In this document: positions 1 to 7,572 of the stretch, piece by piece | How positions within the stretch are numbered: the first letter of the stretch is position 1 | How the letters are laid out: every line of letters starts with the position of its first letter | Source of the DNA: a virus | Lineage: Duplodnaviria > Heunggongvirae > Uroviricota > Caudoviricetes | IMG/VR virus record: IMGVR_UViG_2531839329_000009 | DNA: 7,572 nt | Strand: one strand, 5' to 3' | Notes under the pieces: model-generated | Seen by the model: the letters and a program-made list of their open reading frames with translations, nothing else | What the model was told of the DNA's origin: nothing | Database searches by the model: none | Made by a program: the position numbers and the translations under genes

Positions 1-516
1 CCAGTTGCGCCGTCATGCGTGGCGACATTGCCCAGCCAATAACGGCACGTGACCACAGGTCAATGACCACTGCCAGATACAGCCAGCCTTCATCTGTACT
101 AAGTACGTGATGTCTCCTGCCCACTTCTGGTTCGGGCCACTGGCGTAAAAATCCTGCTCCAACAGATTTTCTGACACAGGCAGGCCGTGTGCGCGGTAGC
201 TGACCGGGCTGAACTTCCGGGAGGCCTTTGCCCTCAGTCCCTGACGGCGCAGGCTTGCCGCCACGGTTTTTACGTTAAAGGGGTAACCCTGAGCACGCAG
301 TTCATCCGTCAGGCGTGGGGCACCGTAACGCTGTTTTGACCGGGTAAAAGCCGCGAGGACAACGCTGTCGCAGTGTTGGCGGAACTGCTGACGCGTGCTT
401 ATCCTTGTCCGCCGCTGACACCACGTATACCAGCCGCTGCGGGCCACCCGGAACACGCGGCACATTGCTTTGATGCTGAACTCAGCCTGATGTTTTTCAA
501 TAAAGACATACTTCAT
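1..516 (-). pseudogene. insF: IS3 transposase OrfB (InsF), frameshifted and cut by the window edge
   Basis: The ATG-initiated frame (516 down to 13) matches InsF up to ...GDITYL, then diverges (VQMKAGCIW...) and stops at 13-15. The DDE-core sequence [31 protein letters not shown] continues in a different frame across 1-93, consistent with a 1-nt deletion near plus-strand 99/100. Confidence 0.7.
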
Positions 517-812
517 TTCAGGCGCTTCGCGAAGTATGTCGCGGCCTTTTGGAGGATAGCCAGCTCTTCATCCCGTTCTGCCAGCTGGCGTTTGAGACGT
601 GCAATCTCGGTAGACATCTCCAGTTCACGTTCAGAAGACGTCTGCTGATTTTGCTGTTTACTGCGCCAGTTGTAGAGTTGTGATTCATACAGGCTGAGTT
701 CACGGGCTGCGGCAGTAACACCGATGCGTTCAGCAAGCTTCAGGGCTTCACTGCGAAATTCAGGCGAATGCTGTTTACGGGGTTTTTTACTGGTTGATAC
801 TGTTTTTGTCAT
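513..812 (-). CDS. insE: IS3 transposase OrfA (InsE), 99 aa
   Basis: ATG at 812-810 preceded by AGGTG. The protein matches IS3 InsE essentially along its whole length from memory. The ORF track extends it to an in-frame GTG at 821. Confidence 0.9.
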
Positions 813-838
813 GTGAGTCACCTCTGACTGAGAGTTTA

Positions 839-877
839 CTCACTTAGCCGCGTGTCCACTATTGCTGGGTAAGATCA
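839..877 (-). repeat. IS3 terminal inverted repeat (IRL); element terminus at 877
   Basis: ...ccactattgctgggtaagatca at 856-877 is the reverse complement of the TGATCTTACCCAGCAATAGTGG terminus. Similarity to known IS3 stops abruptly after 877. IR length is approximate. Confidence 0.6.
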
Positions 878-989
878 TTACCAAAAGACTGCCGAATAAT
901 CTTCTTCCATGGCAAACCGCGACCGCGTGAAGTGTCAGAGGATTGGCTTCCTCTCATTAGCGCGTTTTTTGAGCGAGAATCAGAATAAT

Positions 990-1019
990 ATTGCTCTAAT
1001 AATTCAATATTTTTAAAAC
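990..1019 (+). promoter_or_regulatory. Copy A of a duplicated 30-bp AT-rich element (ATTGCTCTAATAA-N6-ATTTTTAAAAC); promoter-like
   Basis: 26/30 identical to 3131-3160, including exact 13-nt and 11-nt blocks. Contains TTGCTC (991-996) and TAAAAC (1014-1019) separated by 17 bp. Lies 51 bp upstream of the ATG at 1070. Confidence 0.45.
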
Positions 1020-1069
1020 GTGATGTACACTCATAACGTTTTTTATTAGAACAATCTACAAGGTGCACT

Positions 1070-1288
1070 ATGTGGCCATTCCGACGGAAATATCACTACT
1101 GGCTGATCGCCTTTGTTACGCCGACCGGCGGTATCAGGCATGTCATCACCAGGTATCGCAACAAGAGACTCACCTTAGCCAGAATTTTACAGGCTGCCAT
1201 AGGGGAGGGACTGGATACAAATTGCGTAGTCCTTCCTCCTTCATACTTAGGAAAAATGACCGAAGCACAAGCTAATACGGAACTTTGA
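1070..1288 (+). CDS. Hypothetical 72-aa protein; possible upstream ORF coupled to the 1290 gene
   Basis: ATG at 1070 with AGGTG 4-9 nt upstream. Stop TGA 1286-1288 lies 1 nt before the ATG at 1290 (TGAAATG). No recognisable motif. Confidence 0.3.
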   Translation: MWPFRRKYHYWLIAFVTPTGGIRHVITRYRNKRLTLARILQAAIGEGLDTNCVVLPPSYLGKMTEAQANTEL

Positions 1289-1289
1289 A

Positions 1290-2552
1290 ATGAGCACTTC
1301 AGCACAAAACCAATCAATCGAAAATGTATCTATCCCTGACGTCCTGAATGCCGGTATCCCGGCCATTATCCAGAACATCCGGGCCGCGCAACGCCGCGTT
1401 AGTTGTGATGACCTCACAGCGCGTTTTTTTGATAATGCGGTTCAGTCAGCGGAGATGCTTCACGCACAGCTTATTGATGTTTATAACGCAGAAGCTGATA
1501 GCCATAACTCCCTGGTAGATGCAGCTGAAAATATGCAGTTGGATCTCGGTCTGAAGGGTAAAGAAATTGAAGAGCTTCAGCTGCAAATTGAACATTTGAA
1601 ACGCCAGCAACAGGACGCGATCGACGATGCGACGCATGACGCCAACCAGCGTGCTGATAATGCCGAACGTATAAGCATTGAGCTGGAAACAAAACTCAAT
1701 GAAATGACCGCGATGGTTGAACTGCGGAACTCACAGATTTCAACGCTAAAATCTCAATATAAAGAGATCATGAAACTTGATCCTTTTAACCTTGAGAAAC
1801 GCTATAACAAAGCTAAAAGCGAGCGACAGGAACTGCGTAAGCAGGTCGCCGATCTTAACCAACAGCTCAAAAAAACTATTAAAGATGCAAGCGAAGCGCG
1901 CGTGGCATTTGCTAATAAAAAAGCAGAGGTTACCGCGCTGGTTAATGAAAATGCTAAATTTGCGACGCTCAAGAAGGAAATGTATGGCATTACTGAGCGC
2001 CGTTTTCCTGCAAGCAAACTCCATCCGACGTTAGGGCAAATCTCATTCTTCCCGCGCCTCCTGGCTTATGGGATCTCATCGCCTAAAGAGTTCAATAACG
2101 AGCGTCCTTATATCGTTTCTAAGCTGGACTTTGCTTATCAGTTCTGCTGCGACATGGGCTATGCCATTGATATCCGAATCAACGAATGGTTGATGCCAAA
2201 CTTCCAGCCGTTGGCAATTTTCCGCGAGTTCCAGCCGGAAGGTTGGGTAGAGTTCTTCCATGAATTGATCTGTAAAGAGATGGAAAGCCGCCGCCCGGAA
2301 CTGGTCCGTCGAGTTGAGTGGGCGCAAGAGGTTATGTTGGCAGATGCAGAGCTGCCGTTCGAACCGGAATTTATTGATGATCTGGCAGCTAAAGGGCTGC
2401 ATACCCTGTTTGATGTGGTTACCCGCCGTCATGAGCAGTTGGTTGTCGAATTGGGTTTAGAGGAAACAGCGGCAAGAAGACTTCTTGATGTTTGCTATGC
2501 ACTTAGCGATGCATGGGAAAAAGTGAACGGCGGCACTATTTACGTTCGCTGA
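1290..2552 (+). CDS. Hypothetical 420-aa protein: central coiled-coil (~aa 60-230) plus C-terminal globular domain of unknown function
   Basis: Longest ORF in the window. Heptad-like, charge-rich segment (EELQLQIEHLKRQQQ..., ...RQELRKQVADLNQQLKK...). Strong intrinsic terminator directly downstream. No catalytic motif recognised by eye. Confidence 0.75.
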   Translation: MSTSAQNQSIENVSIPDVLNAGIPAIIQNIRAAQRRVSCDDLTARFFDNAVQSAEMLHAQLIDVYNAEADSHNSLVDAAENMQLDLGLKGKEIEELQLQIEHLKRQQQDAIDDATHDANQRADNAERISIELETKLNEMTAMVELRNSQISTLKSQYKEIMKLDPFNLEKRYNKAKSERQELRKQVADLNQQLKKTIKDASEARVAFANKKAEVTALVNENAKFATLKKEMYGITERRFPASKLHPTLGQISFFPRLLAYGISSPKEFNNERPYIVSKLDFAYQFCCDMGYAIDIRINEWLMPNFQPLAIFREFQPEGWVEFFHELICKEMESRRPELVRRVEWAQEVMLADAELPFEPEFIDDLAAKGLHTLFDVVTRRHEQLVVELGLEETAARRLLDVCYALSDAWEKVNGGTIYVR

Positions 2553-2573
2553 TAGTTACAGTGTCACTTTTAA

Positions 2574-2605
2574 TGCTGGTGGAGTGCGCCCACCAGCATT
2601 TTTTT
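2574..2605 (+). terminator. Rho-independent terminator after the 420-aa gene
   Basis: Perfect 9-bp stem TGCTGGTGG (2574-2582) / CCACCAGCA (2590-2598), 7-nt loop, then T7 run 2599-2605. Begins 22 nt after the stop codon at 2550-2552. Confidence 0.7.
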
Positions 2606-2624
2606 CGTCCAATGAGGAGGGCAT

Positions 2625-3131
2625 TTGAGTATTTTCAATAAACACGCACACCAGGAACGTCCGTACATTGTCATAGTAGATATTGATGGAACGATATCGG
2701 AGGCAACGGAAGACAGGCTGCATTTACTTCCACCGCCTGGCAACGGTGCATTAACAGAGCACTGGAACGAGTTTAACCTTGCCTGTGACACTGATGCTTC
2801 CATCACTCCAGTTATTGATATGGTGCGCCAGTTGTCCAGCATTTACACGCTCTGGTTTGTAACCGGGCGCTGTGAGATAGCCAGGGATAAAACACGAGCC
2901 TGGTTGCGTAAGCACGTAACAAATGGGGCAGAGCCTTTGCTATCTATGCGTCCCGCCACCGATGACAGAAATGACGGTCCAGCAAAGATTGATCTCCTTA
3001 AGAAAATTGGTCTAAGCAAAATTGCGTTCGCGCTGGAAGATAAGATTGAAGTGGCGCGTGTTTTCAGGAGGCACGGCGTGCTTACGTTAATGGTCAGGGA
3101 GTATGAAAACGCGCTTCTCCATCAACAATAA
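2625..3131 (+). CDS. HAD-superfamily phosphatase, small capless type (168 aa)
   Basis: TTG start at 2625 preceded by consensus SD GAGGAGG (2614-2620). Motif I DIDGT at aa 19-23 after a hydrophobic strand (YIVIVDIDGT). Motif II-like WFVTGR. Downstream Lys (AKIDLLKK) and acidic motif (ALEDK). Confidence 0.75.
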   Translation: MSIFNKHAHQERPYIVIVDIDGTISEATEDRLHLLPPPGNGALTEHWNEFNLACDTDASITPVIDMVRQLSSIYTLWFVTGRCEIARDKTRAWLRKHVTNGAEPLLSMRPATDDRNDGPAKIDLLKKIGLSKIAFALEDKIEVARVFRRHGVLTLMVREYENALLHQQ

Positions 3132-3160
3132 TTGCTCTAATAAATAATGATTTTTAAAAC
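3131..3160 (+). promoter_or_regulatory. Copy B of the duplicated 30-bp AT-rich element; promoter-like
   Basis: See copy A. Overlaps the HAD stop codon (3129-3131) and lies 70 bp upstream of the ATG at 3230. TTGCTC at 3132-3137 and TAAAAC at 3155-3160 with 17-bp spacing. Confidence 0.45.
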
Positions 3161-3167
3161 AGAGAAA

Positions 3168-3202
3168 GTGAAAATAAAAACATGCCGCAAGGCGCGGCAT
3201 GT
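3168..3202 (-). terminator. Hairpin with flanking A-tract; oriented like a minus-strand intrinsic terminator
   Basis: Perfect 9-bp stem ACATGCCGC (3180-3188) / GCGGCATGT (3194-3202) with 5-nt loop. The plus-strand A-rich run 3168-3180 becomes a U-tract only for minus-strand transcripts. No U-tract on the plus side. Confidence 0.35.
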
Positions 3203-3229
3203 ATCCAATCAATCACAGGAGCTGAAAAT

Positions 3230-3316
3230 ATGAACACGGCATTCAAAATCATTATGGCCGCGATCTATTTCTGGCTGTTCTCTATCACTTTTGGCGGCAT
3301 CGTCGCACATGGGTAA
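3230..3316 (+). CDS. Small hydrophobic peptide (28 aa, MNTAFKIIMAAIYFWLFSITFGGIVAHG); predicted single transmembrane helix
   Basis: ATG at 3230 with AGGAG at 3217-3221 (8-nt spacing). Stop TAA 3314-3316 lies inside the SD of the next gene. Too short for the ORF track. Confidence 0.4.
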   Translation: MNTAFKIIMAAIYFWLFSITFGGIVAHG

Positions 3317-3325
3317 GGGGGATGC

Positions 3326-3904
3326 ATGAAAGGCGAAGTGAAAGAGCGCGGCATGATTTTTAACGATGAGATGGTCCGGGCAATTCTTGGCGGGAATAAA
3401 ACACAGACTCGCAGGATTGTTGAAGAAAAATTCTATGGACGGGCAGTGGCCGCAGAGTTGCTTGCCAAGCATTGTCCATATGGTCAACCGGGCGATCGTA
3501 TTTGGGTTCGCGAAACCTACCGGGTACATGGCAAAGCGACGGACGTCGCAACGCTGGTTTATCGCGCAAGCGTGCGTAACTCCTGGACAGAACAAACGCA
3601 CCGGGTTCCGGTCGAGGTTTGTAATAAACCAGTATCAGAAAAGTGGACGCCATCAATTCACATGCCGCGCTGGGCATCGCGCATTCTTTTGGAAATTACC
3701 GACGTGCGTGTGGAACGGCTGCATGACATGAGCGAGGAAGATGCTAAAGCAGAAGGCGCAACTCCGGCGACGTACAAGATTACGCCATCTGAAGCTGTTT
3801 ATCGCGTTGGTTTTGGTGATATCTGGCGCAGTATTTACGGGCAGGATAACTGGCTATCTAACCAGTTGGTATGGGTAATCGAGTTTAAGCGCATTCAGGA
3901 ATAA
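3326..3904 (+). CDS. ASCH (PUA-like) domain protein, 192 aa
   Basis: SD AAGGGGGA then ATG 3326. N-terminal FNDEMVRAILGGNKTQTRR resembles the ASCH GxKxxExR-type motif (compare E. coli YqfB ...DILAGRKTITIR...). GDRIWVRE and C-terminal VWVIEFK also parallel YqfB (GDVLRV, YVIEFK). Alternative start at ATG 3353. Confidence 0.8.
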   Translation: MKGEVKERGMIFNDEMVRAILGGNKTQTRRIVEEKFYGRAVAAELLAKHCPYGQPGDRIWVRETYRVHGKATDVATLVYRASVRNSWTEQTHRVPVEVCNKPVSEKWTPSIHMPRWASRILLEITDVRVERLHDMSEEDAKAEGATPATYKITPSEAVYRVGFGDIWRSIYGQDNWLSNQLVWVIEFKRIQE

Positions 3905-3907
3905 ACC

Positions 3908-4280
3908 GTGAGTATGCATCAAGTCGTCAGCTTTTCAGGTGGACGAACATCGGCTTATCTCGTTCATCTGATGGAAGCACAGCGAAAAGCTGGCGTTAGC
4001 GTCCATTTCATTTTTATGGATAGCAGAACTGGAAAGCAACGAAGTCCGTGAAGTCGGAAATCAGTTTCTTGTTGTTCGCCATCCTGGGAAAACTCCTGTC
4101 ATCAAGCACTGCACTGGTGACCTGGAAGAGTTTCTGCGGAAGTTAATCGAACAAGACCCGTTAGTAACTATCGACATCATTACGCATCGCTATTACGGGA
4201 TTGGCGGTCAATGGGTTCAGGATGCAGTTGAGTATCTGCATATGATGTCTGACGCTGGCATTCGCATCAAAGGAGAGTGA
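3908..4280 (+). pseudogene. Disrupted ORF with PP-loop-like N-terminus (VVSFSGGRTSAYLVHL); apparent frameshift
   Basis: A frame starting GTG 3908 / ATG 3914 stops at 4049-4051 after 45 codons. A second frame is open 3972-4280 with no start codon and ends 1 nt before the next gene. One indel within 3972-4048, for example in the T5 run 4011-4015, would restore a ~122-codon ORF that exactly fills the gap between flanking genes. Confidence 0.4.
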
Positions 4281-6034: not shown

Positions 6035-6093
6035 ACTACAGGTGCCCACCAGCACATACAGAAAATGATTGTTTCCACATCAAGGAGATTTTA

Positions 6094-6110
6094 ATGTTTC
6101 ACTGAAACAT
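6094..6110. promoter_or_regulatory. Perfect 17-bp palindrome ATGTTTCA-c-TGAAACAT
   Basis: Read directly from the sequence. It sits where the plus-strand operon and the minus-strand small ORF converge and overlaps that ORF's stop codon (6110-6112). The same half-site recurs at 6361-6378. Confidence 0.3.
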
Positions 6111-6247
6111 TAAGTAAGCCAGTGCATAATTCCATTTTTTACTGACCTTAAAAGCAAAATCAAAACGATGATGAGGATAATAGCCAGAATCTGGCTAATA
6201 ATAGGCGCATCTAAAAATGCACTCAGGAACTGAAAAAAAGCGTTCAT
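6110..6247 (-). CDS. Small hydrophobic protein, 45 aa (MNAFFQFLSAFLDAPIISQILAIILIIVLILLLRSVKNGIMHWLT); single TM helix then basic tail
   Basis: Minus-strand ATG at 6247-6245 with AAGGA about 9 nt upstream. Below the ORF-track size cutoff. An AT-rich context can produce hydrophobic ORFs by chance, so this is tentative. Confidence 0.35.
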   Translation of the reverse strand: MNAFFQFLSAFLDAPIISQILAIILIIVLILLLRSVKNGIMHWLT

Positions 6248-6360
6248 TCAGGTGGTTCCTTGTCAAATGTAAAGGTGCACTTGCTCACGTTGACGTAGAA
6301 ACCCAACCCCTATATAGTTGGATTCGGTGAATGAAAGTCGTTAACGTGAGCTTACGGCAC

Positions 6361-6378
6361 ATGTTTTCGGAAAAACAT
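6361..6378. promoter_or_regulatory. Inverted repeat ATGTTTT-cgga-AAAACAT, related to the 6094-6110 palindrome
   Basis: 7-bp arms with a 4-nt spacer. Lies ~115 bp upstream of the minus-strand small ORF start, inside the AT-rich region. Confidence 0.3.
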
Positions 6379-6735
6379 CAGGGAACGGCTAATTCCTTGA
6401 TGCGGGTGGGGTCTGTAATGCAGACCCTATCTATTAACGTCATGATTGCATCTCAAATTTTCTCCTTATCTTCAATTAATCTACATTCATTTCATCTGTT
6501 AGCCACCACAATATGTAGAAAATGGCCCTCTTGCAAGTGCATAACTTTGTGGATAACTCAGGAAGGAAAAAGTGGCTTTCGCGCACCTTCGGTCAGACAA
6601 GGTGTCCGGGAAAGTCAACGCAAAGAAAAAAATTGTTAAAAATAACGTTTGTTGGAATTGTATATTTTTATCCCCTTCAAACATCTTTTTTTAGAGACAG
6701 AAAAACATATCGTAACAACATATATACAGTATTAA

Positions 6736-6966
6736 GAGGCGAGTATTATCCTGCGGTGGGAATTCTGGGCGCTGTTAGATTCGACTTTCTCAGCAGGATT
6801 ACATCGTCAACTTGCGACGTTGCCGTATGACTTTCGTGTAATAGGTGACAATGATGCGGCTAGTGAGTTACTTGTGAAGTTTTTCGGAAAAGGTTTTGTG
6901 GCCTCGGATCTTGATGAGCTACAGCAACATGAAGTGTCTAATTTGATTTTTAGCCATAGCCAATAA
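6736..6966 (+). other. Open frame (76 codons) with protein-like composition but no ATG/GTG near its 5' end; possible small protein with unusual start, or gene remnant
   Basis: Frame open from 6736 to stop TAA 6964-6966 (...ILRWEFWALLDSTFSAGLHRQLATLPYDFRVIGDNDAASELLVKFFGKGFVASDLDELQQHEVSNLIFSHSQ). SD-like AAGAGG at 6734-6739 is followed only by ATT/ATC/CTG codons at 6745-6753. Terminator-like hairpin downstream. Confidence 0.3.
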
Positions 6967-6982
6967 GCCTCCCTCCTCCATC

Positions 6983-7003
6983 AAGGCCACAATTTGTGAC
7001 CTT
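6983..7003 (+). terminator. Terminator-like hairpin (AAGGCCACAA / TTGTGACCTT, one mismatch) followed by a T-rich stretch
   Basis: Stem pairs 9 of 10 positions. T-rich run TTTGTTTTCTGCTTTTTCTTATTT at 7011-7034 is separated from the stem by 7 nt, so this is a weak call. Confidence 0.3.
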
Positions 7004-7092
7004 AAACAATTTGTTTTCTGCTTTTTCTTATTTGAGGAAATAACGTTGTTGACAGCTAATAGGCTCGTTGTTGTTATACATGCCTGTATAGA

Positions 7093-7271
7093 TTATGACC
7101 GTAAATTATTAGCGGATTTTAAGCCATATTCACCGTTGTAGAAATTACTCATGTTCCATTCATTAGGAAGTTCTTTTCTGTCCAATGTATAGTGGCGCAC
7201 GATATAACGATCTTCATCTTCTTCGATGGACAGGCGGACATAGCCAATGTGAATCACCGATACGGGCGGTG
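7093..7271 (-). pseudogene. 3' remnant (58 codons) of a minus-strand ORF truncated by the IS1 insertion
   Basis: Minus-strand frame is open from the IS1 junction to stop at 7095-7093 (...VSVIHIGYVRLSIEEDEDRYIVRHYTLDRKELPNEWNMSNFYNGEYGLKSANNLRS). The same frame runs on into IS1 sequence, so the 5' part is missing. No start codon available. Confidence 0.3.
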
Positions 7272-7294
7272 GGTGATGATGCCAACTTACTGAT
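7272..7294 (+). repeat. IS1 left terminal inverted repeat (23 bp)
   Basis: GGTGATGATGCCAACTTACTGAT at 7272-7294. The flanking sequence ...CGGGCGGTG is unrelated to IS1. Confidence 0.8.
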
Positions 7295-7326
7295 TTAGTG
7301 TATGATGGTGTTTTTGAGGTGCTCCA

Positions 7327-7572
7327 GTGGCTTCTGTTTCTATCAGCTGTCCCTCCTGTTCAGCTACTGACGGGGTGGTGCGTAACGGCAAAAGCACTGC
7401 CGGACATCAGCGCTATCTCTGCTCTCACTGCCGTAAAACATGGCAACTGCAGTTCACTTACACCGCTTCTCAACCCGGTACGCACCAGAAAATCATTGAT
7501 ATGGCCATGAATGGCGTTGGATGCCGGGCAACTGCCCGCATTATGGGCGTTGGCCTCAACACGATTTTACGT
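7327..7572 (+). CDS. insA: IS1 InsA, 3'-partial (first 82 of 91 codons)
   Basis: GTG start at 7327 translates to [43 protein letters not shown]...GVGLNTILR. The track ORF 7298-7510 is in a different frame and is not InsA. Confidence 0.85.

Follow-up and report, generated by a model that had tools for sequence, protein, structure and literature searches.

The two AT-rich repeats of about 30 bp that precede genes at two places in the analyzed stretch of tailed-phage DNA (7,572 nucleotides, hereafter the window) are very probably operators of the C1 immunity repressor, orthologous to Op86a (OpmgRa) and Op88 (OpmgT) of phage P1. We give this reading a probability of about 0.93. Both sites are orthologous to curated operators of P1 and P7 and fit both the C1 consensus and a PWM of the operator family. 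The C1 operator consensus is a 17-bp asymmetric sequence, ATTGCTCTAATAAATTT, and P1 carries 22 such operators (PMC8546580). Both sites are already known: they have been on record since the late 1980s and were listed anew in the 2004 annotation of the P1 genome. Sequence identity, orthology to curated operators, and fit to the operator family are established here; the roles of Lxc, Coi, and Ant, the existence of the regulon, and C1 binding are taken from the literature and database annotation, the last, at these particular sites, from the P1 record and from the Op88 deposit and its title.

The window comes from a P1-type (Punavirus) phage-plasmid and has ~97% identity to phage P1. Between positions 876 and 3330, sequence comparison gives 97.3–97.9% identity to P1, P7, RCS47, SJ46, and other Punavirus genomes. 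Insertion sequences border the window, IS3 on its left side, where it interrupts pmgQ, the gene upstream of the first repeat, and IS1 on its right side; the element is a decayed remnant of a P1-type phage-plasmid. In related plasmids, P1 genes flank the locus (e.g., humD, phd/doc, lpa, and pacA). The IS1 junction of the window had no match across complete E. coli genomes; the closest complete relative with the same IS3 junction retains a gene for ‘phage repressor protein C1’. No c1 gene was found within the 7.5-kb window and, c1 being outside it, we infer regulation by C1 in situ. An Rfam search of the window returned no RNA family.

The repeat pair comprises ATTGCTCTAATAATTCAATATTTTTAAAAC at 990–1019 and ATTGCTCTAATAAATAATGATTTTTAAAAC at 3131–3160, which, as the original prediction held, share 26 of 30 positions (87%) and contain two blocks without mismatch, one of 13 nt (ATTGCTCTAATAA) and one of 11 nt (ATTTTTAAAAC). 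According to both direct reading and a repeat finder, this is the longest direct repeat of the window. Of these, the 13-nt block forms the core of the 17-bp C1 consensus, and the 11-nt block lies outside it. The ATG at 1070 follows the end of the first copy by 50 nt, and the ATG at 3230 follows that of the second by 69 nt; in both copies, TTGCTC and TAAAAC are 17 nt apart. Two features had been overlooked in the earlier reading: the stop codons of the upstream genes abut both direct copies (pmgQ TAA at 986–988; pap TAA at 3129–3131), and a third, inverted copy of the core, matching 12 of its 13 positions, lies on the minus strand at 1043–1055. The operators and associated elements, with P1 AF234172 features placed by the mapping window position = L003 position − 625, are as follows.

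990–1006, plus strand: predicted C1 operator, ortholog of OpmgRa (formerly Op86a), ATTGCTCTAATAATTCA; a protein_bind feature in P1 AF234172 (‘phage repressor C1 ... OpmgRa’) and Op(sht[a]) in P7.
991–1019, plus strand: PpmgR, predicted sigma-70 promoter, with −35 TTGCTC at 991–996, a 17-nt spacer, and −10 TAAAAC at 1014–1019 (P1 annotation).
1015–1042, no strand assigned: inverted repeat between the Op86 operators, AAAACGTGATG-TACACT-CATAACGTTTT, read from the sequence.
1039–1055, minus strand: ortholog of the C1 operator OpmgRb (formerly Op86b), degenerate here, ATTGTTCTAATAAAAAA (P1 and P7 annotation).
3131–3147, plus strand: predicted C1 operator, ortholog of OpmgT (formerly Op88), ATTGCTCTAATAAATAA; a protein_bind feature in P1 and Op(hea) in P7.
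Within 3132–3175, plus strand: P2pmgT, predicted sigma-70 promoter, with −35 TTGCTC at 3132–3137 and −10 TAAAAC at 3155–3160 (P1 annotation).
Within 3132–3175, plus strand: P1pmgT, predicted sigma-70 promoter overlapping P2pmgT, with −35 ATGATT at 3147–3152 and −10 GAAAAT at 3170–3175 (P1 annotation).

Both direct copies behave as members of the operator family. They differ from the consensus at three (990–1006) and two (3131–3147) positions, compared with zero to four or more among annotated P1 operators, and the invariant operator positions 3–5 and 7–11 are intact in both. A PWM trained on 15 other P1 operators scores the Op86a ortholog at 20.6 and the Op88 ortholog at 22.9, within the training range of 16.6–27.3 and above the maximum of 18.9 reached over 200 shuffles. 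A search with the 17-mer consensus, allowing up to three mismatches, finds only these two sites where 0.03 would be expected, and none of 200 dinucleotide-preserving shuffles produced two matches, in agreement with the earlier claim that the likeness is beyond chance. The third site fares differently: its PWM score of 14.5 falls under the range of known operators, and operator position 5 carries T (plus-strand A at 1051) in place of the C present in all 16 scored P1 operators and also in Op72a/b, the two excluded from that count. As the Op86b ortholog, it is probably weakened in the window.

Curated records place C1 operators at the corresponding positions in two phages. In P1 (AF234172, 82152–82217), OpmgRa, OpmgRb, and PpmgR likewise lie just after the pmgQ stop, with the operator start 64 nt before pmgR, and share the orientation of the operator pair, the 13-nt core, the TTGCTC-N17-TAAAAC arrangement, and about 97% identity across the surrounding 2.4 kb; the record notes that OpmgRa ‘controls expression of pmgR and pmgS’. 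The window departs from P1 in having A for C at position 17 of Op86a (1006), a single mispaired position (1035) in the 11-bp palindrome, and T for C5 in Op86b (1051). Similarly, the P1 OpmgT/Op88 site (M25414, the GenBank deposit of the Op88 fragment, and X98146), with P2pmgT and P1pmgT, has the same overlap with the pap stop, the same core, and the same 11-nt block, TGATTTTTAAAAC. Its positions 16–17 read CT in P1, AT in a common variant, and AA in the window, which gives P1pmgT a −35 of ATGATT instead of the TTGATT of P1. The downstream genes also differ: pmgT-pmgU-pmgV in P1 versus an ASCH gene, a PAPS-reductase remnant, and others in the window. P7 (AF503408) has all three sites at equal offsets, as Op(sht[a]), Op(sht[b]), and Op(hea), to which its record assigns control of the sht (pmgR/pmgS) and hea operons; it differs in names and labels (‘sheath’ versus ‘putative morphogenetic’) and lists no promoter features there. 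A full-text literature search for Op86, Op88, and Op72 returned unrelated papers only.

The genes and other features around these sites are listed below.

1070–1288, plus strand: pmgR, 72 aa, the first gene under predicted Op86 control, with coordinates as in P1 pmgR.
1290–2552, plus strand: pmgS, 420 aa, coiled-coil (ORF and P1 annotation).
2572–2607, plus strand: intrinsic terminator-like hairpin and T-run after pmgS, with an 11-pair stem (six GC pairs) followed by TTTTTCGTCC.
2625–3131, plus strand: pap, 168 aa, with a HAD-type polynucleotide 3'-phosphatase domain (Pfam PF25109 HAD_PNKP, E = 3.5e-11).
3180–3202, no strand assigned: GC-rich hairpin with a 10-pair stem in the pmgT-unit leader, resembling a terminator on the minus strand only, where it is followed by TTTTATTTTC.
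3230–3316, plus strand: small hydrophobic ORF, taken earlier as the first ORF of the second unit; 28 aa from ATG 3230, or 44 aa from ATG 3182.
3326–3904, plus strand: gene at the pmgT position, 192 aa, ASCH-like, the first annotated gene past Op88, where the variable accessory region begins.

The 44-aa form of the small ORF is annotated as a ‘membrane protein’ in phage SJ46 and is unannotated in P1. The last base of the pap stop codon (3131) is the first base of Op88. The proposed division into two units, 1070–3131 and 3230 onward, proves too simple, as the terminator at 2572–2607 parts pap from pmgR-pmgS. In P1, pmgR is essential, and its deletion leaves unjoined heads and tails (PMC9024508), while pmgS is non-essential (PMC10695390). 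P1-like phage-plasmids have eight highly variable regions, of which region 8 runs from pmgT to humD (PMC9603915).

The hexamers TTGCTC and TAAAAC picked out in the original prediction are exactly the elements assigned by the curators to PpmgR and P2pmgT. The hexamers match 7 of 12 positions of the sigma-70 consensus, and TAAAAC is without the conserved final T. A generic sigma-70 promoter scan calls neither PpmgR nor P2pmgT. Both are predicted promoters in the P1 record as well, and TTGCTC and TAAAAC may be the hexamers in use. A literature search for transcription starts at these sites found none, and the text of a P1vir RNA-seq paper is silent on pmgR, pmgS, and pmgT.

Could the repeats be plain sigma-70 promoters, constitutive or host-regulated, or AT-rich UP/−35 elements, alike by duplication and with no repressor involved? 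The TTGCTC-N17-TAAAAC geometry before a gene start in both copies is what such promoters would display. However, the conserved core is that of the published C1 operator and not of a promoter consensus, the hexamers are poor, and curated records of two phages give C1 binding at all three sites. The core of Op86b is, moreover, inverted and cannot be a promoter, since the −10 position on that strand reads AGTGTA. We consider this explanation very improbable. The earlier suggestion of a duplicated promoter or operator giving coordinated control is supported insofar as curated C1 operators and predicted promoters occupy the same positions, but the pair is not private: it is one part of a regulon of about 22 operators spread over the phage, and the same 17-bp motif stands at about 20 further places in P1, before unrelated genes.

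The other half of that suggestion, direct repeats at the borders of a mobile or recombining pmgR-pmgS-pap cassette (left, for instance, by a duplication, or acting as att-like sites or as the ends of a deletion), draws on the position of the longest direct repeat of the window at both ends of a three-gene block, each copy abutting a stop codon. It is contradicted by the many other occurrences of the motif in P1 and by its distribution among relatives. The 30-nt pattern occurs in at least 120 viral contigs, always in one of these two contexts: 164 matches across 120 viral stretches include 93 at pmgQ|pmgR and 65 at pap|pmgT junctions, and none with a hybrid pmgQ|pmgT or pap|pmgR junction. Both copies occur on one stretch in 44 relatives, 2138–2143 bp apart in 43 (2141 bp in 35) and 7021 bp apart in the single exception. 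The 21 P1 genes with the strongest conservation include both pmgR and pmgS (PMC9603915). Homologous recombination would also have very little to act on in exact matches as short as 13 and 11 nt. Given the constant spacing and the missing recombinant junctions, we reject the cassette, whose probability is smaller still.

Late promoters dependent on Lpa would be in line with the morphogenetic role of pmgR, which is needed for virion completion, P1 morphogenetic genes usually being late. Eleven annotated P1 late promoters share a 9-bp −22 box, AAGTGACTT, separated by 4 nt in all but one of them from a −10 that is mostly TAnnnT. No Lpa −22 box was found in 985–1075 or 3125–3230, a span that takes in both copies and the palindrome at 1015–1042, which leaves this reading a negligible chance. 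Equally negligible is a chance likeness of intergenic filler, for although both copies are AT-rich and intergenic, it is refuted by the shuffles and PWM scores given above and by the orthology of the positions to curated sites.

Returning to the C1 operators, we compared the window with 81 relatives, retrieved by protein rather than by motif, for the Op86 region and with 78 relatives, aligned on sequence anchors and with indels in a few loci, for the Op88 region. The 13-nt core of Op86a is unchanged in 81 of 81, although these relatives are 97–100% identical, so that conservation within the clade is weak evidence of constraint. PmgS itself is 99–100% identical in 80 retained viral contigs, and a search of species-representative genomes for PmgS found just two near-identical loci and no diverged relatives. 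The full 70-nt stretch of the Op86 region is identical in 45 of the 81, with a right arm of CATCACG, and the inverted repeat has perfect 11-bp arms in the relatives. Against this background, the window carries three private or near-private substitutions that are absent or nearly so in the 81 relatives: A1006, private to the window; A1035, which breaks one pair of the inverted repeat; and A1051, at an invariant Op86b position where all 81 have G. C1 control at this decayed copy may therefore be weakened. The AA at Op88 positions 16–17 is a rare variant (1 of 78).

The operator family also sheds light on the second conserved block. A T-run at operator positions 21–25, beyond the 17-bp consensus, and a TAA or TAT after it are present in 14 of 16 P1 operators. 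T makes up 78% of these positions, compared with 29% of the sequence flanking the same operators, and the run carries ~1 bit per position, which equals the content of several consensus positions. This family-wide T-run explains most of the 11-nt block. It is missing in Op55 and Op86b, and the P1 record places no C1-repressed promoter right at either site. If the T-run were contacted by C1 or the C1-Lxc ternary complex, or set DNA bending, the functional operator would be longer than 17 bp, at ~28 bp including the 11-nt block; this extension strikes us as rather unlikely, if conceivable. Alternatively, the T-run may serve solely as a promoter −35/−10 element.

A mechanism consistent with these observations can be rationalized as follows. 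Each 17-bp asymmetric site (the 13-nt core plus 4 nt) would contain the −35-like TTGCTC of a weak sigma-70 promoter, whose spacer and −10-like TAAAAC would come from the downstream block. In the prophage, C1, aided by its co-repressor Lxc, would sit on the operator and exclude RNA polymerase, and the inverted Op86b just past the first promoter would probably strengthen repression. In lysogens, the operators would thereby prevent expression of pmgR-pmgS and of the variable pmgT region. Upon inactivation of C1 by Coi or Ant1/Ant2, both promoters would open at the same time as the other members of the regulon of roughly 22 operators, the first driving pmgR-pmgS and the second the variable accessory region from the pmgT position onward. 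By analogy, the repressors of L1/L5-type mycobacteriophages (PMC1934351) also appear to pair one repressor with many dispersed asymmetric sites, not a few symmetric ones at a single switch; their repressor and sequence are unrelated to those of C1, and they do not belong to the family.

In summary, the finding is real but ordinary and adds nothing new for phage biology, because both sites had been catalogued earlier. Small residual points are the T-run shared across the operator family and the private mutations in the Op86 region of this copy. For annotation, the window becomes a piece of a decayed P1-type phage-plasmid in which pmgR-pmgS and the variable region past pap are predicted members of the C1 immunity regulon. 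In P1-like plasmids, foreign DNA is known to enter preferentially after Op88, and cargo genes inserted there are then predicted to be silent in lysogens and switched on upon induction.

The top direct repeat of the window consists of two similar AT-rich elements of ~30 bp, ATTGCTCTAATAATTCAATATTTTTAAAAC at 990–1019 (copy 1) and ATTGCTCTAATAAATAATGATTTTTAAAAC at 3131–3160 (copy 2), confirmed both by reading the sequence and by a repeat finder (87% identity, 2141-nt spacing). The copies agree at every base over two blocks, ATTGCTCTAATAA (13 nt) and ATTTTTAAAAC (11 nt), and the gaps to the ATG codons at 1070 (50 nt from copy 1) and 3230 (69 nt from copy 2) are those of the original prediction. 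Its proposal of a duplicated promoter or operator was essentially right: the P1 and P7 records annotate operators of C1, the P1 immunity repressor, at these sites. Judged by sequence and curated annotation, copies 1 and 2 are the P1 operators Op86a and Op88, and the feature is already known. Both direct copies are real, but an inverted third copy of the 13-nt core (1043–1055, one mismatch), corresponding to a third operator, Op86b, had been overlooked.

The annotation of the curated P1 record, AF234172, was placed on the window as follows (window position = L003 position − 625).

Operators and predicted promoters of the P1 record on the window
990–1006: OpmgRa (former Op86a), a ‘phage repressor C1’ site that ‘controls expression of pmgR and pmgS’
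991–996 (−35) and 1014–1019 (−10): PpmgR, predicted sigma-70 promoter
1039–1055, minus strand: OpmgRb (former Op86b)
3131–3147: OpmgT (former Op88)
3132–3137 (−35) and 3155–3160 (−10): P2pmgT, predicted promoter
3147–3152 and 3170–3175: P1pmgT, predicted promoter

The P7 record carries the same three operators and assigns them control of the sht and hea operons. The boxes of PpmgR and P2pmgT coincide with TTGCTC and TAAAAC, so the hexamers singled out from the sequence alone are those that the P1 curators chose for their predicted sigma-70 promoters. Both predicted promoters match 7 of 12 consensus positions, a generic promoter scan reports neither, and a literature search found no transcript mapping for them. 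Op88 was reportedly named by Citron, Velleman and Schuster in 1989 (J Biol Chem 264:3611), and its fragment has separate deposits (M25414 and X98146).

In P1, C1 binds 22 dispersed operators with the asymmetric 17-bp consensus ATTGCTCTAATAAATTT (PMC8546580). Copy 1 departs from it at three positions and copy 2 at two; the chance expectation for the window is 0.03 such matches, and none of the shuffles contained two. With a weight matrix built from 15 annotated P1 operators, leaving out Op86a, Op86b and Op88, the sites at 3131 and 990 score 22.9 and 20.6, respectively (training range 16.6–27.3), against a maximum of 18.9 in 200 shuffles. The inverted site Op86b scores only 14.5; in the window it has T at operator position 5, where every P1 operator examined has C.

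The stretch 850–7250 matches E. coli plasmids, mostly of ~90–100 kb, with humD, phd/doc, lpa and terminase genes, and 876–3330 is 96.8–97.9% identical to P1, P7, RCS47, SJ46 and other Punavirus.

Other features of the window
1–877, minus strand: IS3, inserted in pmgQ, of which the last ~110 nt remain
1070–1288: pmgR, between the repeats
1290–2552: pmgS, between the repeats
2572–2607: strong intrinsic terminator between pmgS and pap
2625–3131: pap, between the repeats, TTG start at 2625; HAD-type polynucleotide phosphatase domain (Pfam, E = 3.5e-11)
3180–3202: GC-rich hairpin with a 10-bp stem, in the leader 3′ of Op88
3182–3316, plus strand: small hydrophobic ORF; ATG 3182 gives 44 aa, ATG 3230 gives 28 aa
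3326–3904: gene at the pmgT position, after copy 2
6110–6247, minus strand: very hydrophobic 45-aa ORF in an AT-rich, otherwise ORF-poor stretch (6040–7090)
~7256–7572: IS1, cutting a minus-strand ORF (7093–7257)

The IS3 junction also occurs in plasmid pMTY9803_untypable1, and a search of 5,426 complete E. coli genomes did not find the IS1 junction. The closest complete relative, NZ_CP135674.1, shares this IS3 junction and is a decayed plasmid of 61 kb derived from P1. Most of its virion genes are gone; cre, ref, repA, parAB, phd/doc and c1 (a gene absent from the window) remain. Also present are chromosomal cellulose-synthase (bcs) genes, a transposon of the Tn3 family and several IS elements. 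The hairpin at 3180–3202 is terminator-like on the minus strand only (stem, then TTTTATTTTC), and no minus-strand gene runs into it. An AGGAG ribosome-binding site precedes ATG 3230 of the small hydrophobic ORF, which is called a ‘membrane protein’ in phage SJ46 and lacks annotation in P1. Further downstream, the remnant of a PAPS-reductase-like gene (3908–4051; 47 N-terminal aa) is followed by an ead/Ea22-like remnant (together 3908–4280), pointing to a deletion or fusion within the variable region 3′ of Op88. No Rfam family matches anywhere in the window.

At least 120 stretches of viral contigs contain the pattern ATTGCTCTAATAA-N6-ATTTTTAAAAC. All 164 matches listed fall in the same two contexts, 93 in pmgQ/pmgR and 65 in pap/pmgT, the rest being four at contig edges and two in the pmgQ context with a one-base indel downstream. 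The other reading offered at the outset, direct repeats bracketing the 1070–3131 module, is rejected on these two contexts, the spacing of 2138–2143 bp in 43 of the 44 listed cases with both copies, and the lack of hybrid junctions among the 164 matches listed. Among 81 relatives that were collected by their PmgS protein, which involves no selection for the motif, the core of Op86a is invariant, that of Op86b is invariant save in one locus, and about nine in ten have an intact Op88 core; variation in the −10-like TAAAAC falls mostly on bases four and five. Since these relatives are 97–100% identical overall, such conservation is weak evidence for constraint.

The 11-nt block occupies operator positions 20–30, outside the 17-bp consensus. 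When the AF234172 operators were aligned with their flanks, 14 of 16 had a T-run at positions 21–25 (e.g., Op51, gtATTTTTAAGt; Op68, tgTTTTTTATGt; Op83, attATTTTAAGc; Op2b, attATTTTTAATg; and an Op99 site, tgATTTTTATGc). T accounts for 78% of these positions vs. 29% of the operators’ own flanks, and each holds ~1 bit of information, like several positions inside the consensus. The excess persists without Op86a and Op88 (52 observed vs. 18.5 expected; 0 of 20,000 random draws reach 52). Op55 and Op86b lack the T-run, and neither has a C1-repressed promoter right at the site in the P1 record: the nearest predicted promoter starts ~95 bp downstream of Op55, and Op86b lies inside the predicted pmgR leader. 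In the simplest reading, operator and promoter move as one unit, a ~30-bp module. In some operators (Op86a, Op88 P2 and Op72a) the T-run would then supply the spacer and the −10 to a promoter with TTGCTC as −35; in others it would be the −35 region of a promoter starting at the operator 3′ end (Pdmt, P2c4, Plpa and P1pmgT). This family-wide T-run is only a mildly new point and may simply reflect promoter elements.

Three changes in the Op86 region of this copy are absent from the 81 relatives, or present in only one locus.

Changes in the Op86 region
1006, A: operator position 17 of Op86a
1035, A: breaks an 11-bp palindrome
1051, A: turns the invariant C5 of Op86b into T

The palindrome is an inverted repeat at 1015–1042 (11-bp arms AAAACGTGATG and CATCACGTTTT, 6-nt loop), perfect in relatives. 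Lying between the two Op86 operators, it overlaps both the −10 and the transcription start predicted for PpmgR; the P1 record does not annotate it, and it does not match the Lpa box, the −22 box of P1 late promoters. The three changes fit relaxed selection and suggest that regulation is decaying in this IS-ridden remnant; control by the Op86 region may be weakened in this copy.

In P1, C1 represses lytic genes at its dispersed operators, the co-repressor Lxc strengthens its binding by forming a ternary complex, and Coi and Ant1/Ant2 inactivate it (PMC8546580; P1 record). At this locus, C1 bound to Op86a and Op88 would cover the −35 hexamers, and Op86b, from ~13 nt 3′ of the predicted start, would place a second repressor on the leader. 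Upon loss of C1, both promoters would open at once. The first unit would stop at the intrinsic terminator at 2572–2607, so pap, for which the P1 record annotates no separate promoter, may need read-through. At the start of the second unit would be the GC-rich leader hairpin and the small hydrophobic ORF. In P1, pmgR is essential for head-tail joining (PMC9024508), and pmgS, pap and pmgT are dispensable (PMC10695390, PMC9024508). The 21 most conserved genes of P1-like phage-plasmids include pmgR and pmgS, whereas the pmgT-to-humD region is one of their eight highly variable regions (PMC9603915), so Op88 stands at the head of an exchangeable cargo region.
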